From a virus: a stretch of DNA of 64,000 nucleotides. The DNA lies in the IMG/VR virus record IMGVR_UViG_3300003316_000274, positions 1 to 64,000 of that record. One strand, given 5' to 3'. Below the pieces are notes generated by a model, which did no database searches, was not told where the DNA came from, and saw only the letters and a program-made list of their open reading frames with translations. The first letter of the stretch is position 1. The number at the start of each line of letters is the position of its first letter. Made by a program: the position numbers and the translations under genes. Of this stretch, positions 3,647 to 62,182 are shown in pieces.

Positions 3647-4042
3647 TCAAGGCCCGTTGTTCTCCTGCTCGGGCGGCACGGGACACGGTGCTCCCTCCGG
3701 CATGAGGCTGGCCAGGCGGCAGTTCGCTAGATCGACCGCGTCTCTCAGCGAGGCACCCGAGTTCGGCCGCATCTCGTGCTCCAGCCGCCGGAGCCGCTCG
3801 CCGATCGCCACCACGGCGCGTTCGGTGTGCTGGAGCCGTACCAGTACACCGGGCCGGGCCGGGACCCCCGGACGCTCGGGCTCGCCGTACCAGTCCGTCA
3901 GGTACTGGTCCATCCGCCTCCAGAAGCGGATGAGCGCCCGTACGGCCTGCCACAGGCCCGTCCCGATGCCCAAGGCGACGGAGAGCACGCCGCCCCAGAT
4001 GAGGACCTGGTCGAGCAGCCCAATGCCCGTGGGGTCCGGCAT
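3647..4042 (-). CDS. single-pass membrane protein downstream of the endolysin (holin-like or lysis-associated)
   Basis: Internal start MPDPTGIGLLDQVLIWGGVLSVALGIGTGLW of ORF 3647..4216. The ATG shares 1 nt with the endolysin stop (TGATG). One N-terminal TM segment followed by a helical region. Confidence 0.7.
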   Translation of the reverse strand: MPDPTGIGLLDQVLIWGGVLSVALGIGTGLWQAVRALIRFWRRMDQYLTDWYGEPERPGVPARPGVLVRLQHTERAVVAIGERLRRLEHEMRPNSGASLRDAVDLANCRLASLMPEGAPCPVPPEQENNGP

Positions 4043-4884
4043 CAGGACGCCAGCCGCGCGGCGAGCTGGTCGGCGACGAGTTCGGCGATCCGCTTCGCGA
4101 GGGTGGGCTCGGCGGCGATGCGGCTGGCGAGCGCAGCCAGCTGCTCCTCGGTGAGTTCCGGCGCGGAGGCCGCCTTGATGGCGGCCAGCAGGTCGTCGAA
4201 ATGGGAATCCGACCACTCCTGGTAATAGAGGGCCGGGATCGTCCGCGGCTTCCCGTCCGAGCCGAGCCTGAACCGATTGGGGATGCCGTATTCCCAGACG
4301 GCCTTCGCGTACTCAGCAGGGGTGGGCATATCGGTCTCCTCCGGCTCGGTGGGGTCCCAATCGGCTGCGCGGGCGACGATGGCGGGGAACAACGTCGTCC
4401 TGAACTGCGTGATGCGGGCCGCGCCCGGGCAGTCGGTTCCGCCGACCGACCATTCCGGGAACATGGAGTGGTAGCCGAACCCGGGCTCGTCCCAGGTCTG
4501 GCAGATCTTCAGCGGAAGCCCGTGTCGCTGGTGCATCCACACGCCGAGGGCGACGAGGGTCTTGACCTGCTTCGGCGTCCACGGGTCGGAGGAGTCGGTC
4601 TTGCTGGCCGTCTCGACGCTGACCGCGCCGCTACCGTCAGCGCGCCGGTTGGCCTCAGCGTTCGCATCCGCGCGAGTCTCCGTGCCGATGTACTGCCCCA
4701 CCGACCCGTCGTAGTCGACACCGAAGTGCGACTCCAGGGTCGTGGTCTTCCAGTGTTCGAGGAGGCGTTGTTCGTTCCACGGCGCGGCCATGCTGTGAAA
4801 GATGAGCTGCGTGGGGCGGATCGCTGGCTGCGCGTCACTCTCGGGCTGGAGCTCCATTTTCTGCGCCTTCTCCCACCAAGCCAT
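4042..4884 (-). CDS. endolysin, N-acetylmuramoyl-L-alanine amidase (PGRP/amidase_2-like) with C-terminal helical domain
   Basis: Start MAWWEKAQK within ORF 4042..5433. Sequence features: FHSMAAPW..LESHFGVDYDG..GYHSMF..TDCPG, resembling zinc amidase endolysins. 1-nt overlap with the upstream stop. Confidence 0.85.
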   Translation of the reverse strand: MAWWEKAQKMELQPESDAQPAIRPTQLIFHSMAAPWNEQRLLEHWKTTTLESHFGVDYDGSVGQYIGTETRADANAEANRRADGSGAVSVETASKTDSSDPWTPKQVKTLVALGVWMHQRHGLPLKICQTWDEPGFGYHSMFPEWSVGGTDCPGAARITQFRTTLFPAIVARAADWDPTEPEETDMPTPAEYAKAVWEYGIPNRFRLGSDGKPRTIPALYYQEWSDSHFDDLLAAIKAASAPELTEEQLAALASRIAAEPTLAKRIAELVADQLAARLAS

Positions 4885-5177
4885 CAGACACGCTCCAGCC
4901 AGTGCCAGGAGCCGCCCCGTCGCTCCCCGGGCGGAAGTGAGCAGCCGACCCCCTCCGGCTGATGCAGAAAGCTTCCGCCTTCCGCGAGGGAGTGGAAGAA
5001 CAAGCCGCTCGGGTTCTGGACGCACAGACCGACCTGATACGGCTCCTCCGCGTTGACCTCGGTGATGGTCGCGGCACGGCACGTAGCGACGTACGCCTGC
5101 GTACCGTCCGGCCGGATCGGGGTTCCGTGGGACACGTAGTGAACGACCCGGCCGACGGCGGCCGTGGATTGCGTCAA
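4884..5177 (-). CDS. small hypothetical protein
   Basis: ORF 4884..5189. The TTG at 5177 is preceded by GGAGG with a 5-nt spacer, so it is preferred over the TTG at 5189. Confidence 0.6.
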   Translation of the reverse strand: MTQSTAAVGRVVHYVSHGTPIRPDGTQAYVATCRAATITEVNAEEPYQVGLCVQNPSGLFFHSLAEGGSFLHQPEGVGCSLPPGERRGGSWHWLERV

Positions 5178-5205
5178 GGAAACCTCCAAGCGGAATGGCG
5201 GATGT

Positions 5206-5313
5206 GTCCGGACACTGTCCGGACGCCAGGGGAAGCAGCATCCGGACGCTGCTCCGGACGATCGACGTAATGGACTGTGACCTGCCCGGACACCATCCGG
5301 ACTCGGTCCGGAC
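5206..5313. repeat. array of 7 (N)TCCGGAC sites, 3 of them perfect GTCCGGAC, upstream of the lysis cassette
   Basis: GTCCGGAC at 5206, 5217 and 5306. ATCCGGAC at 5240 and 5295. CTCCGGAC at 5252. GCCCGGAC at 5284. Spacings are mostly 11-12 bp. The array lies in the 5190-5356 intergenic gap. Confidence 0.8.
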
Positions 5314-5356
5314 GATGTCTCGGATTAGCCACTGCCAGAACTGTAGACAACCGTCA

Positions 5357-5896
5357 TCAGATGCCCTGCCCGGCCTCGATGGCGTGCAGGTGGACCGTGG
5401 CCCCTGCCAGCGGCGCCGGAGCGCCCAGGACATTGATGCCGAGGACCACGACTACCGCGCTGGTGCGCACGTTGACCGTGCACGAGGACGCGGACAGCGC
5501 GGTGACCCGGGCCTCCACCGCGTTGGCGTTCGTCGTCTCCAGCGCCTGCGCCACCTTCGGCACGGCAGAGAACGGCGGGGAGAACGTGAAGACGACGTCC
5601 CCGCTCCCGTTGGACACGCCGGAGGCGGCGAAGATCCGGCGGGCTGCGGTCGGGGCGACGACCCACCGGGTGCCATCGGACTGCACGCGCCGCTCCCGCC
5701 CGGCCGGAACGGTCAGCGTCGCGACGGCGACGCCGTCGACCAGGAACGGCGTCGCCCCTGTCGAGGACCACACCGCGGAGGCGGTGGACGTGTTCGTCAG
5801 GTCGTGGGTGCGGCCCGCGACGGTCGTCGGGTCGGGGAGCGATTCGGCGGCCGAATCCGATTCGAGGATCAGCGCGTTTGTGTCGTGCAAGGCCAC
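5357..5896 (-). CDS. tail fibre-associated protein (possible H-type-lectin-like C-terminus)
   Basis: ORF 5357..5896. GTG start 8 nt after GAGG. Lies in the tail module. The C-terminal segment VVFTFSPPFSAVPKV..CTVNV is lectin-like. Confidence 0.65.
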   Translation of the reverse strand: MALHDTNALILESDSAAESLPDPTTVAGRTHDLTNTSTASAVWSSTGATPFLVDGVAVATLTVPAGRERRVQSDGTRWVVAPTAARRIFAASGVSNGSGDVVFTFSPPFSAVPKVAQALETTNANAVEARVTALSASSCTVNVRTSAVVVVLGINVLGAPAPLAGATVHLHAIEAGQGI

Positions 5897-26321: not shown

Positions 26322-29300
26322 TCAGGCTCCTCCTGTTGTCTGCGCCGGCAGCACGGAGGCGGCCAGCGCGTCGATCTCTGCTCTCAAGGCCGCCGCTTCC
26401 CCGGCCCGTTCTGCCTCCCTGCGCAGCAGCGCGTCCGCGAGGCCGTCCAGCAGGGCCGGATCGGAGAAGGCAGTCGTCAGGGCAGCTGTGATGTCCTCGA
26501 CGTCAAACGTGACCATCCCTTCGGCTACGGGCTCGGGCTCCGGCTGGAGGATCTGCTCGGCCGTGAAAGCCGCGCTCGCGGCGAGCGCCATGTTGGACCG
26601 CTCGACCACGGACGCGACGAGCGGCGAGGAGTGCCCCGGCACCGGAACAGACAGGACCGCCCTCAGCTGCCACTGGCCCCCCGGGCCCTGGGTCATGTGG
26701 TAGCTGGGCTGGCAAGTCAGCATGATGCGCCGGTCGATCTCGGAAACCCAGGGGGTCGCCGCACCGGAGAACCACATGCCGCCCTCATTCATGCCGACGG
26801 TGACAATGCCGGCCACAGTGCGTGTGTCGTCGAGCTGGCAGGCCGCGGTCTCGCACTCGTAGCCGTCGCGGTGGTGCCCGACGTCCATGGTGTAGGCGCC
26901 GGCCCTAACCTCGGTGCCGTCGTCCAGGGCGTACTTCTGGCGCAGGAAGTGGCTGAGGTCGAGTCCCTTCGCGGCGATCTTCTCGATGGTGACCTTCGCC
27001 CCATACGAGGCGTGGGGGACGCCTGCCTGCGCGACCCAGCCGTAGATCCGGCCGGCCTTGTAGTGGACTCCGCCCGATCCCGGGGGGAGTTCCTCGGTGG
27101 TCGGCTCGCGGAACCACTCGGCGGGCATCGGTGGCAGGTCCTGCATGGCCCTCCACGCTGATGCCTCCAGGACGTCCATCTCGCTGTCGCCGTCGTCCTC
27201 GTCGGCCCAGGGGACGGTGGCGGGTGGGTCATCGGGGAACGTCTCGTTGATGCGCCCATACAGCGTCTCGACCTTGGCCCGCAGGGCGGGCACGTCGGCT
27301 TCCGGTACGTCTACGCCACCCCGCGCGCCCTGCAAGGCCGCCGCGACCGCGAACACGCCCTGCGGGAAGATGTGGAGCCCGCCATCGACCGGGCGGGCAA
27401 TACCCAGCTTGTACGCGCCGAGCGTCGCCGGGTCGGCTTCGTCGTCCCGCCACAAGAACGCATCCGCCAGCTTGTCGGCGTCGACCTCGCCGTCTTCTCC
27501 GGTAGCCCAGGCGAGGGTCTCGGACGCGGCGGCGGGGCCATCCCACTCGGCGTCCCGGACCTCGTGGATGGGCAGGTCGGTGTTCCCGGTGACCGAGGCG
27601 ACGAGGGAGCCCTCGGGCAGAGTGGCCGGGGCGGTGTAGCGGCGCCCCGAGCGCGCCACGTGCCCCTTGTCGACGGCAGTCTTGAGGTGCGCCCGGACAG
27701 TGAGGAGCGGAAGTCCCGTGGCCTCGGTGATGTCGCGGGAGGAAAGCACGTCAGGGCGTCCCCACACCACGTGCACGACGCGGCTGTAGTCATCGAGGGC
27801 GGCAGCGGCCAAGGCGAAGTCGTCCTCGGCCACGGCCCGCTCGGCGTCAGCGGGCTCCTCGTACGGATCGATGACGACACGTGCCCGCGAGTAGGCAGGC
27901 AGTGTCACGAGCGTGGCACCGCGGACCCGAGCCCGGGTCACCCGCATCAGGAACTCGCCGCTGCGCTGGACCTCCAGGACCTCGGCGTCGGCGCCAGGGT
28001 CGGGGTCGCCGGCCGCAGCGGTCAGGGAAGGCGCGAGGAGGACGGCGACGTCGCGGCTGACCCTGCCGTTGAGGTCGGTCACGAGGGTGACCTGACGCGT
28101 CCCGGAGGCGACGCTCAGCCCTGAGGCGGTCACCTGGGGGGCGGTGGACGCGGTCAGGGACCAGCCGCCGTCCGCGAGTCTCATCAGGGACGCCCGGTGC
28201 AGGTGCGCCGACGCCACGATCGCCGGTTCGACGTCGACGCCGGCATCGTCTGGAAGCGGCGCCGTGGAGATGAGCTCCAGGTCGACGGCGTCCAGGTCGA
28301 CAGACACGCCGACGGGGGCGTCCTGGTCGAGGAGCGTGGCCACTTCCCAGCCGGCGTCCTGCGTCATGTAGAAGACGCCGGACCCAGTGATCCGGTCGCC
28401 GTCGCGGCCGAGTTGTGTGGCGGCGCCGGCGAGTTCGCCGCCGTCGTGGCCGTAGCCCATTGCGTCGCAGTAGTGGATCGGCCAGGAGTCGCCCTCCCAG
28501 TACAGGGAGCCGGGGGCGAATACCCGGTCATCGCCGGTCTGTTCGTTCTCGAACGCCAAGGCGGTGTCGCCGGGCGTCGACCACGTCCGCACCGGGAAGA
28601 CCGGTGCCGCCGTCATCTCCCTGTCGTTCGGTTCGTGCATCGGCTCCTCCTGTTCTTCGGGGGCGAGTTCGCCGCCCACGTACCAGCGGTGGATCTCATC
28701 GGTTCCGTCGAGCACGATGCCGTACGCGGGGCCCGGGTCGACCTCGGCGACGGTGCCGGTCGTGGAGCCTTCGTCGTGCGGTTTCCCGGTCACCACAACC
28801 CGGTCGCCCGGCGTGAACGCACGCCCGGCTGCCGTGATGCCGGGAGTGAGCGGGATGTCGGTCGCATCGCCTGCGAACACGACTCGGATCCGGTCGAACA
28901 CGACGGGTCCCAGGCGCTCCGTCATCGGCTGCATGAGAGCTGTGTCGGTCCGGTAGCCAGCCGTGACGTGCGCTACCCACGGCGAGTGCTGCACGGCCGG
29001 TTCGGGCAGCCCTTCGGTGCCGAGGGCGGCGTCGACAGCGATGGTGTGCGCCGTGTCGAGCCCGGACCCGGGCGTGTCCCGGTCGTCGCTGGTCGCCCAC
29101 ACCCATGCGGGATCGTCGCTGTCCGGGTTCCAGTGGTTGATGCCGAACAGGCGTGCCTGGACGGGCCCGTCGATCGCTGCGGCGCGGGTCTGCACGGCTG
29201 CGGTCAGGGCGGCGCGCTGCTGCTCGCTCCACTCCGACGCGTCGCCGGTCAGGTAGTACAGCGTGCAGTGGAGTTCGGTCGCGTCGTGGCCGCCGTCGAC

Positions 29301-30185
29301 GGCCAGGCGCTCGGCATCGGCGGCCGTGGGGATGAGGGCGATCATGCCGCCCCGGTTCGGGTTGTCTGTGGCAGCGGCGAGGTCGGTCATGGACGCCGTC
29401 CTTTCCGAAGGCGCGGGTTCTACCCGCATGACGCAGCGGCAGTTCACTGTGAGGTCCGGCGGGGCCGAGGGGTCTCCGGGGTACTGCATCAGCGCGCCGC
29501 CGACGGTGAACGCCTCGTCGAGGAGCCGTAGCTGGCCGTTGACGGCCCTGTGGGTGTCGCGCACGCGTGCGTCACCTCTGGTCCGCCACTGCTTCACGAG
29601 TGGCCGGTCCGGGCCGGTCAGTGCTTCTGCCGCTGCTTGTACGCCGGCGTTCCAGGCGCGGGTGGCTTCCGTGGCTGCGATGCGTTCCGCGCGGGCCTCG
29701 CCGAGTTGTTCGCCGTCCGCGCGGAGAAATGCCCGCAGGCGTGCCCGTAGCGCCTGAGTGTCCTCGCCTGCGGCGATGCCGTCGCTGAGTTCGCGGGCGG
29801 CGCCCTGGGCGATCCGGTCGCCGATCGCCCTGACGAGCGCTTCGGTGGCGGTTGCGTAGTTGGTCAGGGAGGCTGGCAGGGTCTGGTCGTCGTACCGGTC
29901 GGAGAGGCTGTCGAGGCCTTCCGGTGTGCGGCCGTCTCCTGCCGTGTCGGCCGTGGAGGACACGGCGGGCTGGGCGGCGGAGCGGAAGAGACGCCGCATG
30001 ATGGCGGATACGTGCTCGCGCCACAGCTGTGCGATACGGCGCACCGACCATGCTGCTGCGGTGATCTCGTCCGCGCGGCCGAGTTCCTGGACCGCCTGGC
30101 GGGCGACGGCCCGCAGCGCGGCCTTCACCTCGCGCAGGACCGCGTCCTCCGCTGCCGCGAGGGCTTCTTCTTCAGCGGTGGCCAA
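26322..30185 (-). CDS. head morphogenesis polyprotein: MuF-like domain, 2H-phosphoesterase-like domain, prohead serine protease-like domain, wHTH-like segment, and a long C-terminal region
   Basis: ORF 26322..30224. A TTG at 30185 lies 6 nt after GGAGG. MuF motif: RDTHRAVNG..PGDP..NCRC. Two HxT motifs: LHCTLYY and AHVTAGY. Protease-like segments: GYGHDGGELAG...VGVSVD...ATLVTLPAYSRARV. Confidence 0.9.
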   Translation of the reverse strand: MATAEEEALAAAEDAVLREVKAALRAVARQAVQELGRADEITAAAWSVRRIAQLWREHVSAIMRRLFRSAAQPAVSSTADTAGDGRTPEGLDSLSDRYDDQTLPASLTNYATATEALVRAIGDRIAQGAARELSDGIAAGEDTQALRARLRAFLRADGEQLGEARAERIAATEATRAWNAGVQAAAEALTGPDRPLVKQWRTRGDARVRDTHRAVNGQLRLLDEAFTVGGALMQYPGDPSAPPDLTVNCRCVMRVEPAPSERTASMTDLAAATDNPNRGGMIALIPTAADAERLAVDGGHDATELHCTLYYLTGDASEWSEQQRAALTAAVQTRAAAIDGPVQARLFGINHWNPDSDDPAWVWATSDDRDTPGSGLDTAHTIAVDAALGTEGLPEPAVQHSPWVAHVTAGYRTDTALMQPMTERLGPVVFDRIRVVFAGDATDIPLTPGITAAGRAFTPGDRVVVTGKPHDEGSTTGTVAEVDPGPAYGIVLDGTDEIHRWYVGGELAPEEQEEPMHEPNDREMTAAPVFPVRTWSTPGDTALAFENEQTGDDRVFAPGSLYWEGDSWPIHYCDAMGYGHDGGELAGAATQLGRDGDRITGSGVFYMTQDAGWEVATLLDQDAPVGVSVDLDAVDLELISTAPLPDDAGVDVEPAIVASAHLHRASLMRLADGGWSLTASTAPQVTASGLSVASGTRQVTLVTDLNGRVSRDVAVLLAPSLTAAAGDPDPGADAEVLEVQRSGEFLMRVTRARVRGATLVTLPAYSRARVVIDPYEEPADAERAVAEDDFALAAAALDDYSRVVHVVWGRPDVLSSRDITEATGLPLLTVRAHLKTAVDKGHVARSGRRYTAPATLPEGSLVASVTGNTDLPIHEVRDAEWDGPAAASETLAWATGEDGEVDADKLADAFLWRDDEADPATLGAYKLGIARPVDGGLHIFPQGVFAVAAALQGARGGVDVPEADVPALRAKVETLYGRINETFPDDPPATVPWADEDDGDSEMDVLEASAWRAMQDLPPMPAEWFREPTTEELPPGSGGVHYKAGRIYGWVAQAGVPHASYGAKVTIEKIAAKGLDLSHFLRQKYALDDGTEVRAGAYTMDVGHHRDGYECETAACQLDDTRTVAGIVTVGMNEGGMWFSGAATPWVSEIDRRIMLTCQPSYHMTQGPGGQWQLRAVLSVPVPGHSSPLVASVVERSNMALAASAAFTAEQILQPEPEPVAEGMVTFDVEDITAALTTAFSDPALLDGLADALLRREAERAGEAAALRAEIDALAASVLPAQTTGGA

Positions 30186-30360
30186 TGCGAACCTCCGGTA
30201 GATCCGGGTCGGCACACACGTCACACATGGCCCATGAGCCGATCGTCTGGACGCCGTGCTCCGTGACCAGCAGCAGCGGCGCGGCCAGGGCGGTGAAGGC
30301 CTTGCACGGCGTGCACCACGCCTCGTGTCGCAGGCCGTACGCCAGGAATCCGCCCTTCAC
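30172..30360 (-). CDS. small zinc-ribbon-like protein
   Basis: The GTG at 30360 overlaps the portal stop (GTGA). Sequence is VKGGFLAYGLRHEAWCTPC...MCDVC. Good GC3. It is the tail of ORF 30172..30537. Confidence 0.55.
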   Translation of the reverse strand: MKGGFLAYGLRHEAWCTPCKAFTALAAPLLLVTEHGVQTIGSWAMCDVCADPDLPEVRIGHR

Positions 30361-32060
30361 CGGCCCGCTCCCGCCTGACGAACCAGGGTGACAACGTTGT
30401 CGTATGTGTGAGGAGTCTGCGTGGTCAGCAGAGCGATGACGTACCGGTCTAGGGCGGCGGTCAGCGCGCCGGGAGCGGCGCCTGACCGGACGGCTACCTC
30501 GGGCACACCGCTCCACGCGCCTTCGAGGAGTCCCCACGCCTCGACCTCCCGCTCGTTCACCCGGTACACCCGGTAGCGCTGCGCGGCGGGAACGGACTGG
30601 GCCGCTTCACGCTCGGCGCGCGGGCACACGGGCCGGTTCAGCATCCGCTCTCCCACGCGGGTCAGCGCGCTGTTCACGGCGACGTCGAGCGCGGCGCACA
30701 GCGCTGCGTCCGGACCGGGCAGCGCGGACGCGGAAGGCTCGGCGGGCATCGCTTCGGTCTCGGCAACCGGGAGTGCCGGACGGCCCGCCGCAGGCTCCAC
30801 GGGCGCCGTGCCGGCGCCGGGGGCGTCGGCTTCGGTGAATCCCGTCTCCCGTCGGGCCGCTTGGCCGCTGATCAGCCCTGCCTGATACGCCTCCAAGGCG
30901 ATCGCCGCCTTGTTCGTGGCGGTGCGCAGGCTCGCAGTGTCGTACCAAACGAGAACGTCGTCGGCGTCCGGGACTCTACGGGCGTCCAGCGCGGGCCGCA
31001 GCCACGCGGTAGTGAGGGCGTGGCACACCGTCGCGAGTTTCGGCTCGACCGCGGTCTGGATCGCGTCGCCCTTGATCGACCAGACGTTCCAGTGCGATGC
31101 GTCGGAGAGGCCGGTGATGATTTCCTTCGGCACGTCCATGCCGATCGCGATCCGCTCGCGCAGCTCTCCCCTCAGCTGCTGGGCCATCGTGTCGAACTCG
31201 GAGTCGAGGGTGAGGTGGCGCACCTCGCCGATCACATCGGCGGGGACCTCCAGAACAATGGGGACCGTGGCGGCTGCGCTGCCGGGCTCACGGATCGCGG
31301 TCGACGCGACCTCCATGAACACGTCCAGGAGGTCGTCCTCGGCGTCCCCGACGGTGCCCTGCTGGGTGGGGAATCTTGTTCCTTTGGGGACGAGGAGGAT
31401 GCCGCGGCCGGTGATGCGGGAGCGGGCGATCGCCTGGATCGCCAGGGACAGCAGGTTCAGCTCCTCGATCAGGCCGAGGGACGACTTGATCGCACTGTCC
31501 GCGTCGCGGTGCATGAACGGGTCCGGCTCCCACACACGGAACGCGACCGGGTTGGTGTCGTCGGGGTCGTCCTCGTCGTAGGCGGGGATCACCACCTCGA
31601 CGCCGTCCTTCTGGACCGTCAGGCGACCGCGCTCGGGGCGGACTTCCTGCGTCGACAGGACGCGCCATTCGTAGCTCGACGGCTGCCCGGTCACCGCATC
31701 GATCACGGGAGACACCAGCGTCCACGCCTCGCCGGTCACGGTCAGGTGGGGGCCGAATGCCCCGAGGAAGTCGGGCTGCCCCGATACGCCGCCGGCGATC
31801 TGCGCGACGATCTCGGATGCGGGGTGGTCATCCGGGAGCGGCGCGATGCTGTTGTCGGGCCCGGGGCGGCCGGCGAAAAGAGTTGCCTGGGACATGGCGC
31901 TCCCGATCCACCGGGCGACGAAACGAATCTCCGGCACGGTCCGGTACGCGTTGATCGCAGCAGGCTGCCAGCTCCCGTCGGCCGGGATCGCCCGGGACGC
32001 GGCGAGCTGCGCGGTGTAGCGCTGCGCGGCGGCGGTCAAGACCCTGCGAGGCTGGGCCAA
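30357..32060 (-). CDS. portal protein
   Basis: ORF 30357..32060. TTG start 6 nt after GGAGGAGAG. Size, position and composition are typical of siphovirus portals. Confidence 0.85.
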   Translation of the reverse strand: MAQPRRVLTAAAQRYTAQLAASRAIPADGSWQPAAINAYRTVPEIRFVARWIGSAMSQATLFAGRPGPDNSIAPLPDDHPASEIVAQIAGGVSGQPDFLGAFGPHLTVTGEAWTLVSPVIDAVTGQPSSYEWRVLSTQEVRPERGRLTVQKDGVEVVIPAYDEDDPDDTNPVAFRVWEPDPFMHRDADSAIKSSLGLIEELNLLSLAIQAIARSRITGRGILLVPKGTRFPTQQGTVGDAEDDLLDVFMEVASTAIREPGSAAATVPIVLEVPADVIGEVRHLTLDSEFDTMAQQLRGELRERIAIGMDVPKEIITGLSDASHWNVWSIKGDAIQTAVEPKLATVCHALTTAWLRPALDARRVPDADDVLVWYDTASLRTATNKAAIALEAYQAGLISGQAARRETGFTEADAPGAGTAPVEPAAGRPALPVAETEAMPAEPSASALPGPDAALCAALDVAVNSALTRVGERMLNRPVCPRAEREAAQSVPAAQRYRVYRVNEREVEAWGLLEGAWSGVPEVAVRSGAAPGALTAALDRYVIALLTTQTPHTYDNVVTLVRQAGAGR

Positions 32061-41321: not shown

Positions 41322-42062
41322 TCAGGGGAGATCGGCGATGAGGACCGTGGCGTTGTCAGCGCGCGTGGTGGCGTGGTCGATGGCGGCCTGGACGAAGTCG
41401 TGGGCGGCGTGTGCGGGGGTACCGGTGAGGTAGTCGGCGAGGTTGCGGCAGGAATCCTCCAGGGGCTCGTACGCGCCGTCGGACGCGAGGAGGAGTCGGT
41501 GAGGGCCGTTGTCGAGGGCGAGGGTGGTGGACTCGATGGCGGGGTGCCCGTACTGGGCCTTGACCTCGTCGTCGGTCTCGTAGGCGCCGAGGCAGGAGGT
41601 GAGGAGGTTGCGGTTGCCGCCGGGGCTGGTGGGGTAGCTCGTGCCGGGCGGGTAGACGCGGCGGAGGTTGTGGTCCTGGGTGAGGCGCCGGAGGGTGGTG
41701 CCGGTGAAGAGGTAGGCGCGGGAGTCGCCGCACCAGGCGACGGTGAGGTTCCGGCCGTTGATGACGGCGACGACTGCGGCGGCCTGCGGGAGATCGGGGC
41801 CGTACGGGCCGCGCCGGGCAGGTTCGGCGGCGTACTGGTCGTAGACAGCGCGCAGTCCAGTTTCGGCGTCGGCATGTCGGGCGGCGGCCTGCGCGAGGCG
41901 CACGGCGCCGGTGCGGGCCCAGTCGCGGACTTCGTCGTTGGAGCCGATGCCGTCGAAGAGGACGTAGGCGCGGGTGACACCGTCGGGGTTGGTGCGGGTG
42001 GCGGTGGCGTCGCACTGATGAGTGCGGTCACCGATGAGCTGGGCGGTCGCGTGAGTACGCAT
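41322..42062 (-). CDS. PP2C-family Ser/Thr protein phosphatase
   Basis: Start MRTHATAQL within ORF 41322..42116. Motifs: FDGIGS, WCGDSRAYLF, LTQDHN, LLASDGAYE, ADNATVLIADL. Confidence 0.85.
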   Translation of the reverse strand: MRTHATAQLIGDRTHQCDATATRTNPDGVTRAYVLFDGIGSNDEVRDWARTGAVRLAQAAARHADAETGLRAVYDQYAAEPARRGPYGPDLPQAAAVVAVINGRNLTVAWCGDSRAYLFTGTTLRRLTQDHNLRRVYPPGTSYPTSPGGNRNLLTSCLGAYETDDEVKAQYGHPAIESTTLALDNGPHRLLLASDGAYEPLEDSCRNLADYLTGTPAHAAHDFVQAAIDHATTRADNATVLIADLP

Positions 42063-42121
42063 GGAGCCCCCTGAGGTTCTGATCTTGTGGTGGCGGTGGG
42101 GTGCCGGGCGAGGCACCGTGG

Positions 42122-48040: not shown

Positions 48041-48727
48041 TCACCTTCCGAGGTAGGGCGGCAGCAAGCGGGCCGCGATAGTGACGAAGTTCGATGGGCG
48101 CTGGCGGGGCAGCCGCTCCGCGTCGAGGCGGCGCAGGACCGTGCAGGCGTCGACGGCCGCGACGATGTGGATGCCGTTGAGCCGGTACTCGCCGCCGTTG
48201 GCCAGCCGGCCGTCGATGATCGCGACGGGTACGGGGTGTGTGCTGAGGAGGCTCGCGACGGCGCGGGCTCCGCGCTTCAGGCCGTCGAGCCGGTCGGTGA
48301 CGTCTCGGTTGTCGTGCCACAGCCGGCCGCCGTGGACGCGCACCGTGTGGCGGGCGGACATCCTCTTCGGGTCGAGGATGTACACGTGGCCGCGCGGGCT
48401 GATGGCGAGGGCGTCGATGTTCGTCGAGCCGGTCGGCAGCCTGCGGTCGTACAGGATCGTCCAGCCGTCGCGGTCGAGTTCGGCCAGGAGCTCGGCGACG
48501 TACTGCTCTCCTCTGGCCCCGGCCTCGTAGCGGTCGGCGAGCTGCCCGGCCTGGGTGGGGATGTTCAGTGCGGTGGCCAGCCGGGTCAGGGGGGTGCGTA
48601 GTTCCTGCGCGCGGGCCAGCGCCGAGGCGCCGGGAGCGCCCGGCTTCGGCCGGCGTCCGGGGCGCCCCAGTCGGTTCCAGGCGTAGATCGCGGCAGCGAT
48701 GAGGGCTACGGCCGTCGGAAGGGACAT
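48041..48727 (-). CDS. membrane-anchored NERD (nuclease-related) domain protein
   Basis: Start MSLPTAVALIAAAIYAW within ORF 48041..48931. Contains GARGEQYVAELLAELDRDGWTILYDRRLPTGSTNIDALAISPRGHVYILDPK. Confidence 0.75.
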   Translation of the reverse strand: MSLPTAVALIAAAIYAWNRLGRPGRRPKPGAPGASALARAQELRTPLTRLATALNIPTQAGQLADRYEAGARGEQYVAELLAELDRDGWTILYDRRLPTGSTNIDALAISPRGHVYILDPKRMSARHTVRVHGGRLWHDNRDVTDRLDGLKRGARAVASLLSTHPVPVAIIDGRLANGGEYRLNGIHIVAAVDACTVLRRLDAERLPRQRPSNFVTIAARLLPPYLGR

Positions 48728-48842
48728 CAGCGGTTTCCTTGCGCGAGGAGCAGGACGAGGTCGACGAGGAGCAGGAGGAGGGAGGCGAAGGCGAGGCCGA
48801 CCACTAGGTGGTCGGCCCCAACCTTCACGCGGCGGCGCCCGG

Positions 48843-48995
48843 TCACCAGGCGTCGTAGTAGACGAGGGAGGCGACGAGAGCGGCCAGGGCCACCCAGCTG
48901 CCGAGGGGCGCCAGATCACGGGGCTTGCCACGCACCGCGTAATAGAGGCCGAGGAGGCCGCTGACCTGGACGACGTAGATAAGAGGGGGGATCAC
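48843..48995 (-). CDS. 50-aa membrane peptide
   Basis: The GTG at 48995 overlaps the upstream stop (GTGA). Sequence is VIPPLIYVVQVSGLLGLYYAVRGKPRDLAPLGSWVALAALVASLVYYDAW. Confidence 0.45.
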   Translation of the reverse strand: MIPPLIYVVQVSGLLGLYYAVRGKPRDLAPLGSWVALAALVASLVYYDAW

Positions 48996-59699: not shown

Positions 59700-60127
59700 G
59701 CGGACTCCTCGGTCAGGGGGGAGGCGGGGGCGGGGCGGCAGCGCAGCAGGGCGCGGGCCACGGTGCGGGCGCCATACCGGCGTACGGCCTCGTCGTGGCC
59801 GAACTCGGCGACCGCCTCGCAGATCTCGTCCAGCGGCAGCACCACAGGAACCGTCGGGGTCTGGTCGGGGATCTGGCCTCGGCGCCGGTTCGTGGCACAG
59901 AACAGGCAGCCGCCGCCGGTGGTCGGGTCCACCGGTGCACCGGGGTGCTGGCGGCAGCCGGCCGGGGCCAGCTCTGCGCGGACACCGGCGAGAAGACGCC
60001 GCGCACGGTCGAGGTCCTGGCCGATCTCGTCGAGCTGCTCGGGCGCAGCCTCGAAGACCGCCAGCCGGTCCCCGTGCTCGCCCAGAACACGCAGCACGCG
60101 CCCCAGCCCGGTAGTCGTGTCGGTCAT
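59696..60127 (-). CDS. hypothetical protein
   Basis: Start MTDTTTGLGRVLRVLGEHG within ORF 59696..60217. ATGA overlap with the initiator gene. Confidence 0.6.
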   Translation of the reverse strand: MTDTTTGLGRVLRVLGEHGDRLAVFEAAPEQLDEIGQDLDRARRLLAGVRAELAPAGCRQHPGAPVDPTTGGGCLFCATNRRRGQIPDQTPTVPVVLPLDEICEAVAEFGHDEAVRRYGARTVARALLRCRPAPASPLTEESA

Positions 60128-61407
60128 CGGTCGTTCACGTCCTCGGTGGTGGGGGATCCCCAGCTCGCGGCCAAGCCGGCGCAGTGCTCGGCCGCCTCGC
60201 GTTTGCAGTCCTGGCACTCACCGTCGCCCGGTTCGGGCTCGCGGCGCTTGGGATTTCGACAGATCCGGCATTCCCACCAGGACCGCCCGGATCGCTGCGC
60301 GGGCACCGCCCCCTTCCCGGGCCGGTCCGCCTTGCGCTGCTCGCAGGCCCGGCAGTCCGCGCCAGTATCGATCAACTCGCCGTCCTCGCACCCCGCGTCC
60401 GGGCACTCACCGGCCCGCACGAGCGCCTGGAGGACCGCGTACGGATTCGCAATGCCCTTCCCGGCCAGGAGGTCGCCCTGGAAGCCGTAACGCACCCAGC
60501 GGCGAGCTACACGGTCCGCGAGCTGCTCCGGCGTCCGGTGCTCCATCTCCCGCAGCACGGCCATCCGGAACGTGTGCGGCACCGTCTTGCCCGCCAGCAG
60601 CTCCAGCAGTGACTCGGGCACTCCCCGCTCGACCACGGCGACGGCACGAGCCTCGTCCGGGGTGAGGTTGATCTGCCTCCTCGAGGACGCTGGCTTTTCC
60701 GGCGCGGCGGAGCCGCCACGCGCGGCGCGCGCCCTACTACCGGTAGAGGCCCTACGGGCGTCACCAGCGCTACGCGCCGAAGGCGCCAATTCCTCCGAAG
60801 GTGACTGAGAAGGTGACTCAGAAGGTTGTGGGACTTCTAGTCCCTGGGGTGGGGACTGACAGTCCCGGGGGTGGGGACTATCAGTCCCCAGGTCGGCGCC
60901 TTCCGGGTCGTTCCCGACCCAGGGACTATCAGTCCCTGGGTCTTCACCCGCCTGGCCGTCCTTCTTCTTGGGCCGCTTCGTGCCCTTGTCGGCCCGGGTC
61001 TTCTTCGGCGGGGCGTCGGCGAGCGCGGGCCGGTTCTCCCGGGTCAGCGGGTGCCGACCGAGCGATGCCCGCTGCTCGTTGATCTCGTCGAGCTGGACGG
61101 CGCTCCAGAAGTCGACCGGGATCATGACCTCCCAGACGACCGGGCGCTGCTTCTCCGGGATCGCGAGCCACGCCTGGGACCGGTACTGCTCCTGTCGGCG
61201 CAGGATGCCGCGCTGCTCCATCTCGCGGCACCGGCGACCGGCCGTCTTCGTGTCGACCCGGGCGACCTTGGCGAGCGTGCCGTACGAGCGGAAGCAGTTG
61301 CAGCCGTCGAAGTCACCCTTCATCACCAGGGCGATGAGGATGGCCCGTTCTTCGGCATCGCGCACCGGGGCGTGCTCCGCAGCCCAGATGATCGGATACA
61401 GACTCAC
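60124..61407 (-). CDS. replication-initiator-like protein: N-terminal winged-HTH, low-complexity linker, C-terminal Cys-rich (zinc-ribbon-like) region
   Basis: ORF 60124..61407. Contains MSLYPIIWAAEH...GTLAKVARVDTKTAGRRCREMEQRGILRR. The linker DNA carries the palindrome array at 60830-60936. Confidence 0.7.
   Translation of the reverse strand: MSLYPIIWAAEHAPVRDAEERAILIALVMKGDFDGCNCFRSYGTLAKVARVDTKTAGRRCREMEQRGILRRQEQYRSQAWLAIPEKQRPVVWEVMIPVDFWSAVQLDEINEQRASLGRHPLTRENRPALADAPPKKTRADKGTKRPKKKDGQAGEDPGTDSPWVGNDPEGADLGTDSPHPRDCQSPPQGLEVPQPSESPSQSPSEELAPSARSAGDARRASTGSRARAARGGSAAPEKPASSRRQINLTPDEARAVAVVERGVPESLLELLAGKTVPHTFRMAVLREMEHRTPEQLADRVARRWVRYGFQGDLLAGKGIANPYAVLQALVRAGECPDAGCEDGELIDTGADCRACEQRKADRPGKGAVPAQRSGRSWWECRICRNPKRREPEPGDGECQDCKREAAEHCAGLAASWGSPTTEDVNDR
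60797..60936. repeat. origin-like array: a 12-bp tandem repeat plus four GGGACT-N3-AGTCCC palindromes
   Basis: GAAGGTGACTSA x2.4 at 60797-60826. Palindromes at 60830-60844, 60852-60866, 60874-60888 and 60922-60936, spaced 22, 22 and 48 bp apart. Confidence 0.7.
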
Positions 61408-61458
61408 TCAGCCCTCCTGGCAGCAGAGGCTTCCTTGATCCTCAATGTGTACACTACC

Positions 61459-61472
61459 GTACCGCACGGTAC
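61459..61472. promoter_or_regulatory. 14-bp palindromic operator candidate upstream of the Phd-like gene
   Basis: GTACCGCACGGTAC, 19 bp upstream of the ATG at 61491, in the divergent gap 61408-61490. Confidence 0.55.
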
Positions 61473-61490
61473 TTCAGATACTCTTGCGGC

Positions 61491-61700
61491 ATGCCAGAGC
61501 ACACGAGCGTCAAAGAGATCGGGCTGCGGGAACTGCGCGCGGACCTCGGGGCCGTCGTCCTGGAGGTCGGCGTCCGACGGGAGATCACCTACGTGATGAA
61601 CCGAGGCCGGCGAATCGCGGCGATCGTGCCGCTGGACGTCGCGGAGAAGGCCGAAGCGCTGATGGCCAACGAGTCGGGGAGCGACGCCTCCTCGACCTGA
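61491..61700 (+). CDS. Phd/YefM-family antitoxin-like protein
   Basis: ORF 61491..61700. Contains KEIGLRELRADLGAVVLEV...VMNRGRRIAAIVPLD. Confidence 0.7.
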   Translation: MPEHTSVKEIGLRELRADLGAVVLEVGVRREITYVMNRGRRIAAIVPLDVAEKAEALMANESGSDASST

Positions 61701-61715
61701 TCGAGGAGACAGCCG

Positions 61716-62165
61716 ATGCGGCTCGACGACCAACCGACCGCCCTGTACCGCTTCTACGACTCCAGCGGAACCCTGCTGTACGTCGGCATCACCAACGACC
61801 CCGAGGCGCGATGGCGCTACCACGCCCTCACCAAGGCGTGGTGGCCGACCGTCGTGCGGAAGTCCGTGGACTGGCGCCCCAACCGTCCTGACGCTGAACG
61901 CGCCGAGGCGGCAGCGATCTTCACGGAGCGCCCGCGTCACAACTGCATCCACTCGTTCACCGAGCCCGAGGACATGCCTCTCGGGGACGCGCGGCGCCGC
62001 TTCACGCACGTGGTCGACCACGTCCGGGCAACCGGAGAGCCGCGCTGGATCACCCGCCACGGGCACCGGTCTGCCGTGCTCGTGTCCCCCGAGTTCTACG
62101 AGCGCGCCCTGGCGGCCCTCGGCGACGACGTGCCGACGCAGGAGTCCGTGGCTGCGGGCTCCTGA
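61716..62165 (+). CDS. GIY-YIG nuclease domain fused to a C-terminal Phd/YefM-like domain
   Basis: ORF 61716..62165. N-terminal ALYRFYDSSGTLLYVGITNDPEARWRYH...E...N. C-terminal PLGDARRRFTHVVDHVRATGEPRWITRHGHRSAVLVSPEFYE. Confidence 0.75.
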   Translation: MRLDDQPTALYRFYDSSGTLLYVGITNDPEARWRYHALTKAWWPTVVRKSVDWRPNRPDAERAEAAAIFTERPRHNCIHSFTEPEDMPLGDARRRFTHVVDHVRATGEPRWITRHGHRSAVLVSPEFYERALAALGDDVPTQESVAAGS

Positions 62166-62182
62166 CGCCAGGGCGCGCCCGT

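Follow-up and report, generated by a model that had tools for sequence, protein, structure and literature searches.

Positions 1 to 64,000 of the IMG/VR virus record IMGVR_UViG_3300003316_000274, a stretch of 64,000 nucleotides that we call the window, carry a cassette of two small plus-strand open reading frames (ORFs), in which a free-standing Phd/YefM-like DNA-binding protein (ORF1, gene 1) is followed by a GIY-YIG nuclease fused to a second Phd/YefM-like domain (ORF2, gene 2). Comparison of alleles at the DNA level showed that this cassette is made up of three exchangeable modules, with breakpoints at the ribosome-binding site (RBS) of ORF2 and at the linker between its two domains. We suggest tentatively, with a probability of about 0.45, that the cassette encodes an autorepressed nuclease which is guided by its own DNA-binding domain and is used in conflicts between phages, in the manner of the nuclease Odn or of the homing endonucleases. 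A preliminary description of this DNA had proposed a toxin-antitoxin or defence pair, and the two proposals are weighed below. The coordinates of all features are collected in Table 1.

Both halves of ORF2 passed the Pfam cut-offs. GIY-YIG matched residues 10-40 with 26.7 bits (cut-off 22.6), and PhdYeFM matched residues 88-132 with 40.3 bits (cut-off 29.8), the latter being the sole Pfam match in the C-terminal half, where no DNA-binding module of the NUMOD/IENR type was found. The family PHROG 3312, annotated as endonuclease, matched residues 5-81 (E 2e-21). The tyrosines of the GIY-YIG hairpin lie in the motifs LYRFYD (Y11) and LLYVGIT (Y22), about 10 residues apart, and on strands modelled at residues 8-14 and 20-26. 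An AlphaFold model built with 20 homologs had a mean predicted local distance difference test (pLDDT) score of 84.9 and placed one domain at residues 8-71 and another at residues 89-135, with scores of 96-98 in the GIY-YIG core and a low-confidence linker between the domains. In Foldseek, the N-terminal half matched the GIY-YIG domain of UvrC (1yd6/1ycz, probability 1.0, target-normalised TM 0.61-0.67) and the C-terminal half matched the N-terminal DNA-binding domains of Phd/YefM proteins (2odk, 3hs2 and 4zlx). The fold search thus agreed with the profile search on the fusion that the preliminary description had proposed. Residues Y11, Y22, R32, E64 and N76 of ORF2 align with Y19, Y29, R39, E76 and N88 of UvrC, and in 148 divergent representatives of the family Y11, Y22, G24, R32 and N76 do not vary, with H36 and E64 conserved in at least 90%. 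The active site of the nuclease is intact by these comparisons, and the enzyme looks active. The fused Phd domain bears the signature R.G.R.AVLVSPEFYERAL, by which we recognise the beta subtype.

By itself, ORF1 did not reach the Pfam cut-off of 29.8 bits (it scored 19.7 bits, E 7e-4), but 13 of its 14 relatives matched PF02604 (best E 3e-10) and the family profile matched the structures of Phd and VapB46. Judged by these profiles, the earlier assignment of this 69-residue protein to Phd/YefM appears solid at the level of the family. Its structure model was poor (pLDDT 55.5, built on 5 sequences) and was left out of the fold search. ORF1 belongs to a second subtype, alpha, with the signature ITYV.NRGRRIAAIVP, and shares only 25% identity with the fused Phd of ORF2, so that the two domains are distant paralogs. 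Both matches span only positions ~3-50 of the 74 positions in the Phd/YefM profile, that is, the dimerising DNA-binding half. The C-terminal segment by which antitoxins of this fold bind their toxins is absent from both copies, and low-complexity tails stand in its place (13 residues in ORF1, where the tail is poorly conserved, and 14-17 residues in ORF2). We also noticed that gene-1 proteins with unlike DNA-binding domains share a tail rich in Pro, Gly and acidic residues (for example KKTPEGDDSPA and KKAQPGGDSPA), followed by a conserved junction, TGACCGAGGAG. The bearers are L007, L030 and L045 among the Phd-type loci and L016, L027, L034, L035 and L062 among those with a helix-turn-helix (HTH)-like gene 1, and gene 1 of L005 has no such tail. 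The shared tail could be a functional peptide, or it could be merely the footprint of a recombination junction.

Gene 1 and gene 2 are separated by 15 nt in the window, and most of the loci have a gap of this length. Read-through of the ORF1 stop codon was considered as a candidate explanation of the junction, as the two genes are in frame (TGA plus five codons), and was rejected: L069 has a spacing of 12 nt and L068 one of 17 nt, and the frame is therefore not conserved. We attribute the conservation of the junction to the RBS and not to read-through.

The distribution of the family was surveyed by an exhaustive profile search in which representative clusters were counted. At E<=1e-3 the search placed 18,741 representatives in the GIY-YIG clade, of which 14,174 remained at E<=1e-10; most of them share the module of ~80 amino acids (aa) alone. 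Among the top 148 representatives, the C-terminal Pfam domain is Phd/YefM in 38 and GntR in 5; HTH_23, HTH_28, HTH_3, HTH_17, HTH_20, HTH_24, HTH_31, MerR, IclR, Sigma70_r4 and the ribbon-helix-helix (RHH) fold occur in one to three each. All of the Pfam C-terminal domains found there are DNA-binding domains of the transcription-factor type. Because the same GIY-YIG module carries other DNA-binding domains instead, we regard the fused Phd as one of many interchangeable DNA-targeting domains. The module fused to Phd was found at 20 distinct loci, and at all 20 a small gene of the DNA-binding type lies directly upstream. Since the same design recurs at 20 distinct loci, the pair is not a product of chance ORFs. 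Gene 1 is an alpha-Phd at nine of these loci, a beta-Phd at two, a member of one HTH-like family (below the Pfam threshold) at six, and another HTH-like or possibly RHH-like protein at the remaining three. In L033 the arrangement is inverted, with a free beta-Phd followed by a GIY-YIG::alpha fusion. The divergent neighbor is a replication gene at most of the loci examined, and its family varies (O-like initiator, DnaB-like helicase, DnaC-like protein or primase-polymerase).

The survey of architecture and neighborhood that the preliminary description had called for thus found a conserved design which appears uncharacterised. PADLOC-DB v2 gave no significant match, the sole match being PDC-S14 (E 0.028 over 32 residues), NCBIfam holds no specific model for the cassette, and no paper in the literature that we searched joins GIY-YIG with Phd/YefM. 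Searches for GIY-YIG together with antitoxin, Streptomyces prophage or actinophage defence returned nothing relevant; the 2006 phylogenomic survey of GIY-YIG proteins does not mention Phd/YefM fusions, and the cytotoxicity screen of mycobacteriophage Girr names no GIY-YIG gene. In cultured Mycobacterium and Gordonia phages the module occurs in 200 records annotated 'G-I-Y Y-I-G endonuclease', none of which covers the Phd half. Clade members in these phages and in Streptomyces plasmids are 40-47% identical to ORF2 over residues 3-93, and the GntR fusions on Streptomyces plasmids are annotated simply as GntR regulators.

The comparison of alleles provided direct evidence of modular exchange. The window and L005 are 86% identical in DNA over 61697-62125, which covers ORF2, and in L005 gene 1 and its promoter have been swapped from the alpha to the beta type, the two sequences parting at the stop codon and RBS. 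The window and L069 are 76% identical over 61430-61968, which covers the promoter, ORF1 and the GIY-YIG domain, and after the linker L069 continues into a different Phd domain. The third comparison is that of L068 with L065, two alleles of one locus whose flanks are homologous on either side (94% and 86%). In L068 the GTAC operator described below, an alpha gene and a GIY-YIG domain take the place that a 101-bp beta promoter alone fills in L065, and the same beta-Phd that is fused in L068 stands free in L065: 64 of 69 residues are identical (93%), tail included, when fused P0011 is compared with the free protein of L065. On the left the alleles part directly in front of the first GTAC box, and on the right they part at the first codons of the Phd domain. 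For other fused domains the nearest free regulator belongs to another element, at identities of 74% (L049-L051), 58% (L038-L045), 54% (L033-L030) and 43% (window-L005). The class of gene 1 is also decoupled from the phylogeny of the nuclease domain, in that the class changes between nuclease domains that are 75-87% identical. The nuclease domain of the window, with an alpha partner, is 87% identical to that of L005, with a beta partner; the domains of L030 (alpha) and L029 (HTH-like) are 78% identical. A rule by which a free regulator would stand beside its own fused copy in the same locus was also tried and held only in part (L040, L051, L005, L049, L010, L011 and, weakly, L006). It is not universal, because HTH-like gene-1 proteins pair with Phd-fused nucleases.

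The position of the cassette seems to attract nuclease genes. A search for relatives of the adjoining replication initiator with a single sequence found none, and a search with an alignment of three sequences found two. In L067, whose replication initiator is 51% identical, there is no cassette and a 324-aa EndoVII/HNH-like gene lies in that place, just upstream of the initiator gene (3900-4874 in locus coordinates), and L065 has an HNH-motif gene (4480-5000 in locus coordinates) and the free beta-Phd at the cassette position. These HNH and EndoVII calls were made by eye from motifs. They suggest that the position beside replication genes is a hot spot for mobile nuclease genes.

The promoter region of ORF1 holds an ordered set of short palindromes. 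The preliminary description had reported a 14-bp palindrome there. This element, GTACCGCACGGTAC, does exist, but its two 6-bp arms enclose a non-symmetric CA. It stops 18 nt short of the ORF1 ATG and is part of a larger element of three GTAC boxes, which start at 61449, 61459 and 61469, or -42, -32 and -22 from the ATG. Against an expectation of 0.13, the window contains the spacing GTAC-N6-GTAC three times, and three GTACs within 30 bp are found only at the cassette promoter. When nine promoters of alpha-type gene 1 were compared, the boxes stood at the same three positions in seven; one promoter has no middle box, and two have an array longer by 10 bp. A TAnnnT hexamer is present at -12 to -7 in all nine. 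A scan for E. coli-type sigma-70 promoters found none, and we therefore base our promoter call on the conserved TAnnnT. ORF1 has no Shine-Dalgarno sequence in front of it, and its mRNA is thus probably leaderless, with the operator overlapping the promoter. TGTACA is the core hexamer of YefM operators, and YefM binds paired TGTACA palindromes (PMC1802561). Both kinds of operator consist of short GTAC-centred palindromes, one of which in the cassette contains the TGTACA core, but the boxes are 10 bp apart in the cassette and 12 bp apart in the YefM operators.

The GTAC operator goes with the free alpha protein and not with the beta domain of the nuclease, because the beta and HTH-like loci have other operators. 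Free beta-type Phd genes are preceded by a candidate operator, TGRYCATG-N10-TGRYCATG, which flanks a TACACT hexamer 6 nt before the ATG. This motif was defined from three promoters and, among 69 loci, was found only at free beta genes; in the window it is absent, with one match at two mismatches that is consistent with chance. Its absence would be compatible with a nuclease that cuts at the sites of the protein it mimics. Loci with an HTH-like gene 1 have a different inverted repeat and no GTAC boxes. In six of them (L016, L027, L029, L031, L034 and L035) a long inverted repeat, TAGCCAACAT-N16-ATGTTGGCTA, lies ~100-60 nt upstream and is presumably the operator of this gene-1 family, and several of these promoters also carry the palindrome TGTGGCCACA. 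Whether the arms of the 14-bp repeat vary together with the subgroups of ORF1 was also considered, and this idea was dropped, as L069, whose ORF1 is 87% identical, has GTACGCtgAAGTAC. The arms read GTACCG..CGGTAC in the window and GTACGC..GCGTAC at other loci, and only the GTAC cores and their 10-bp phasing are constant. The window has its third GTAC-N6-GTAC site at 5091-5104, within a small minus-strand ORF (4884-5189) that is flanked by lysis and tail genes. This site, GTACGCCTGCGTAC, forms a 6+2+6 inverted repeat without mismatches and is exactly the reverse complement of the middle element in the L030 operator; it could be a second ORF1 site or a product of chance, given the 0.13 expected per window.

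How these modules might work together can be outlined as follows. A dimeric ORF1 repressor would bind the three phased GTAC boxes over its own, probably leaderless promoter and keep the expression of the operon low. The GIY-YIG domain of ~80 aa would presumably cut DNA. A bare GIY-YIG domain of 80 aa, as known from I-TevI, needs a DNA-binding partner domain, and the C-terminal beta-Phd may fill this part by dimerising the enzyme and reading the DNA sequence, like the HTH in I-TevI or the RepA-like domain in Odn. A dimeric reader of palindromes would provide affinity as well as two catalytic heads. The guiding domain appears to have been traded at the linker with free regulators of related phages, and because the DNA-binding domain was exchanged with such regulators, the most likely targets would be operator-type sites in competing phages or other mobile elements, whose cleavage would give exclusion or a homing-like advantage. 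The carrier could be spared because the site is absent, because ORF1 throttles expression, or both, and ORF1 might be an antidote besides a repressor. It is on the exchange of the guiding domain with free regulators, the hot spot for nuclease genes and the antisense, self-promoted layout of the cassette (described below) that we base the proposed role in conflict. A homing-type advantage is a close variant of this guided-nuclease mechanism.

Several observations weigh against the guided nuclease. L005 holds a free beta-Phd, its operator and a GIY-YIG::beta fusion in one genome, which would amount to self-targeting unless the two specificities differ (the domains are 44% identical) or the free protein protects the site. 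For the fused domain of the window, the best free beta-Phd that was found reaches no more than 43% identity, and the argument from mimicry, strong for the family, is thus weak for ORF2 of the window. The beta-type operator motif was based on just three promoters, and the ORF2 model is of a single chain and therefore silent on dimerisation and on contact with ORF1. To our knowledge, the Phd/YefM fold has otherwise been met almost exclusively in antitoxins, and the classes of gene 1 (Phd, HTH-like and possibly RHH) are those of type II antitoxins, which suits the toxin-antitoxin proposal. A wider form of the guided nuclease would make the cassette one member of a very large and so far unrecognised class of nucleases that capture DNA-binding domains in actinobacterial phages, plasmids and integrative elements, in which free regulator copies act as immunity. 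A unit of repressor gene and bare GIY-YIG domain would recombine in frame onto resident regulators (Phd, GntR, HTH, RHH) and so be aimed at the operators of rivals, and free copies of the regulators, as in L065, would protect either because they occupy the sites or because they poison the nuclease dimer. We consider this wider form doubtful.

The toxin-antitoxin proposal is also on the unlikely side. According to it, ORF2 would be a DNase toxin and ORF1 a labile antitoxin that both represses and neutralises it, by direct contact through a Phd-Phd heterodimer or through the acidic tail of ORF1, and the pair would stabilise the prophage or kill infected cells (abortive infection). The form of the cassette is suggestive here, with two small co-oriented genes 15 nt apart, the DNA-binding protein first and an operator over the promoter; the gene-1 classes (Phd, HTH-like) are typical of antitoxins and are mixed and matched as in toxin-antitoxin families. 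Phd-fold antitoxins with toxins other than Doc do exist, for example VapB46, the K..PGGDSPA-like tail common to Phd- and HTH-type gene 1 could be a neutralising element or degron, and the free Phd that stands alone in L065 resembles an orphan antitoxin and would fit a role in anti-addiction or immunity. The truncation of ORF1 before the toxin-binding half and its short, variable tail argue against neutralisation, as does L005, where a tail-less gene 1 pairs with a nuclease domain 87% identical to that of the window. The identity of only 25% between ORF1 and the fused domain does not favor the heterodimer, which is moreover inapplicable to the loci with an HTH-like gene 1; as several loci pair such a gene with the same kind of nuclease, the heterodimerisation of free and fused Phd that the preliminary description put forward cannot serve as a general mechanism. 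Neither PADLOC nor the toxin-antitoxin literature that we searched contains the pair. What stands of the earlier proposal is a conserved two-gene unit on a prophage with predicted autoregulation. Its other part, in which the Phd domains were antitoxin or tether, is not supported, in view of their restriction to the DNA-binding half, the swapping of gene 1 and the replacement of the fused Phd with GntR, HTH, MerR, IclR, sigma-70 region 4 or RHH domains.

A free-standing homing endonuclease is a rather improbable alternative, in which ORF2 would cut the cassette-less allele near the replication genes at co-infection, repair would copy the cassette, and ORF1 would limit expression. The order of N-terminal GIY-YIG, linker and C-terminal DNA-binding domain is that of homing endonucleases, the homologous modules in the 200 cultured actinophage records are annotated as endonucleases, and the cassette occurs sporadically in a conserved place that adjoins replication genes of several unrelated kinds. 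In this place relatives either lack the cassette or carry HNH/EndoVII genes (no cassette in L067, the free Phd only in L065). Genes of the T4 seg/mob type provide the comparison for the layout: the cassette runs opposite to the surrounding operon from its own operator-controlled promoter and is more like a moron expressed in the lysogen. No NUMOD-type DNA-binding domain is present and no target site was identified; a Phd that reads short palindromes would imply a short and frequent target, and a companion regulator gene is not a known feature of homing endonucleases. The divergent placement beside a replication gene in most loci, with the operator in the shared intergenic region, might also suggest that the cassette assists the phage in replication or recombination, perhaps through a site-specific nickase at the origin that is co-regulated with the replication genes. 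This is very unlikely, as the adjoining replication gene comes from several unrelated families and shows no conserved partnership, the close relative L067 does without the cassette, and free swapping of modules would not be expected of an essential replication factor. The possibility that ORF2 is solely a transcription factor, its GIY-YIG domain being degenerate and inactive, is suggested by public records, in which several members are annotated merely as GntR-family or Phd-family regulators, and is made extremely improbable by the conservation of the catalytic positions and their alignment with the UvrC active site.

The cassette resembles several known systems in part. With Phd/Doc and YefM/YoeB it has in common the N-terminal dimerising DNA-binding fold of Phd/YefM (in ORF1 and in the C-terminal half of ORF2), the DNA-binding gene in first place and a tight operon. 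In contrast to these pairs it has neither a toxin-binding segment nor a Doc, YoeB, RelE or PIN partner, the downstream nuclease itself carries a Phd domain, and gene 1 can be exchanged for HTH-like proteins with the nuclease unchanged. Like I-TevI and the Seg endonucleases, ORF2 has an N-terminal GIY-YIG domain, a flexible linker and a separate C-terminal DNA-binding domain, and is phage-borne, sporadic and located beside genes of DNA metabolism. I-TevI represses its own expression through its DNA-binding domain. ORF2 differs in using the fold of a dimeric transcription factor or antitoxin and not a NUMOD, zinc finger or HTH, and in having its own repressor gene and operator and an antisense layout. 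C.PvuII, C.AhdI and C.Esp1396I are controller (C) proteins of restriction-modification systems, which are known for a leaderless transcript. Genes of restriction systems regulated by C proteins share with the cassette a small dimeric DNA-binding protein upstream of a nuclease, autoregulation via palindromic boxes and a nuclease that is throttled on a mobile element. They differ in that no methyltransferase was found near the cassette (in its 20-kb neighborhood or among the 54 window ORFs scanned), the regulator has a Phd fold and not an HTH, and the specificity domain of the nuclease is swappable.

A further parallel is Odn of the vibriophage ICP1, a chimeric, origin-directed nuclease of the GIY-YIG superfamily whose specificity domain copies the DNA-binding protein of another element (PMC8263062). 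Odn arose by domain shuffling and acts in conflict between elements, as was shown experimentally (Barth, Nguyen and Seed 2021, PMC8263062). The likeness lies in one fused Phd of the family, which shares 93% identity with a free Phd that a related phage encodes at the corresponding locus. The differences are that Odn copies the origin-binding domain of a replication initiator and has no dedicated repressor, whereas the donors to the cassette are small regulators (Phd, GntR, HTH), that the fused domain of the window is 43% identical to its nearest free copy, and that the cassette is known here from sequence. The actinophage 'G-I-Y Y-I-G endonuclease' genes (PHROG 3312/16880) and the Streptomyces 'GIY-YIG nuclease family protein' genes belong to the same clade and differ in their C-termini; no function beyond the name is recorded for them.

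There is thus precedent for modular GIY-YIG endonucleases and for autoregulated nuclease operons, and one case of a chimeric, retargeted nuclease is known. What would be new is the use of the Phd/YefM fold as a targeting domain of an enzyme, a conserved cassette of repressor and nuclease, and allelic evidence for fusion and fission of regulator and nuclease. If the guided nuclease is real, the Phd/YefM fold would serve enzymes in DNA targeting, a role outside toxin-antitoxin systems, and automatic labels such as 'prevent-host-death family antitoxin' and 'GntR family regulator' would be misleading for such proteins. A family of more than 14,000 clusters is undescribed in the literature that we searched, and close phages differ exactly by the catalytic module before a regulator gene. 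Retargeting of the Odn type, for which ICP1 provides the one experimentally known case, would then be a general modular mechanism of the arms race, actinobacterial phages and plasmids would have a common way to attack the regulatory sites of each other, and the family would represent small (~150 aa), dimeric, sequence-directed nucleases that are naturally modular. If the cassette were instead a toxin-antitoxin pair, it would add a class of DNA-nuclease toxins to the Phd-type antitoxins.

Table 1. Coordinates of the cassette and its control elements in the 64,000-nucleotide window
Feature	Position	Strand	Remarks
Divergent intergenic region, 83 bp	61408-61490	.	Between replication-initiator-like gene and ORF1; holds the cassette promoter and operator
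GTGTACAC, perfect palindrome with TGTACA	61447-61454	.	Contains GTAC box 1 (61449-61452, -42 from ATG); conserved in nine alpha-type promoters
GTACCG-CA-CGGTAC inverted repeat GTACCGCACGGTAC	61459-61472	.	GTAC boxes 2 (-32) and 3 (-22), spaced by one helical turn
TACTCT, -10-like TAnnnT hexamer	61479-61484	+	Ends 6 nt 5' of ORF1 ATG
ORF1 (gene 1), 69 aa, ATG start	61491-61700	+	Phd/YefM-fold domain of alpha subtype with 13-aa acidic low-complexity tail; predicted autorepressor
GAGGAG, RBS of ORF2	61703-61708	+	7 nt 5' of ATG, inside conserved junction TGA-yCGAGGAG; recombination breakpoint between gene 1 and gene 2
ORF2 (gene 2), 149 aa, ATG start	61716-62165	+	GIY-YIG nuclease fused to Phd/YefM domain
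GIY-YIG catalytic domain, residues ~8-80	61737-61955	+	Y11, Y22, R32, H36, E64, N76
Interdomain linker, residues ~81-87	61956-61976	+	Low pLDDT; breakpoint for exchange of DNA-binding domains
Phd/YefM-fold domain of beta subtype, residues 88-135	61977-62120	+	Proposed dimerising DNA-targeting module; followed by 14-aa tail
Convergent gap, 17 bp	62166-62182	.	From ORF2 stop to stop of minus-strand 154-aa early gene

The window belongs to a tailed phage, as it encodes terminase, portal, major head and tape-measure proteins. Its closest relatives lie inside the chromosomes of Streptomyces and Actinacidiphila, and for this reason we consider this Streptomyces phage temperate. The window matches a soil-metagenome contig of JGI. 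The gene calls of JGI and NCBI, which were made independently, agreed with the preliminary description on the two genes and their position: ORF1 and ORF2 are the sole plus-strand genes amid minus-strand early genes, among them those for YqaJ exonuclease, RecT, an RNase T-like protein, RusA, WhiB and HTH_58. The 427-aa replication-initiator-like gene (60124-61407, minus strand) starts at 61407 and is divergent from the cassette. A scan for intrinsic terminators found no terminator-like site in the convergent gap at the other end, and since the convergent ends are only 17 bp apart, the transcripts of the cassette and of the early operon should run antisense and collide. Such transcriptional interference between the two, which we infer from the layout, would suit a pair that is expressed from the prophage. 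No gene for Doc, YoeB, RelE or a PIN protein was found in the 20-kb neighborhood or among the 54 scanned ORFs, and the absence of the canonical partner toxins of Phd/YefM, pointed out earlier, was thereby confirmed.

Some further observations concern the relatives of the cassette and the rest of the window. Members of the clade with a GntR-like C-terminus (L010, L011, L049/L051) lie ~140 bp downstream of a full-length GntR/HutC-like regulator of ~254 aa or of a short GntR winged-helix gene. The loci with a GntR context are L010, L011, L014, L017, L018, L042 and L044 (~5080-5850, upstream of the GIY-YIG gene), together with the plasmid matches labelled H36, H37 and H41. Such members sit on Streptomyces plasmids and chromosomes, and for several the annotation does not go beyond 'GntR family transcriptional regulator'. 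Their setting may be related to that of the KorSA-type regulators of integrative conjugative elements. Elsewhere in the window, a protein with a nuclease-related domain (NERD; 48041-48931, minus strand, E 2e-12) and a PP2C-type protein phosphatase (41322-42116, minus strand, E 1e-10) are unusual accessory genes and possible candidates for functions in host takeover or defence. Two adjacent large ORFs, 26322-30224 and 30357-32060 (both minus strand), match portal-protein PHROGs, and the 1300-aa member of this pair also matches MuF-like head-morphogenesis and RNA-ligase-like families. These matches point to a large head protein of several domains, with ORF boundaries taken from a crude caller based on GC content at the third codon position (GC3).

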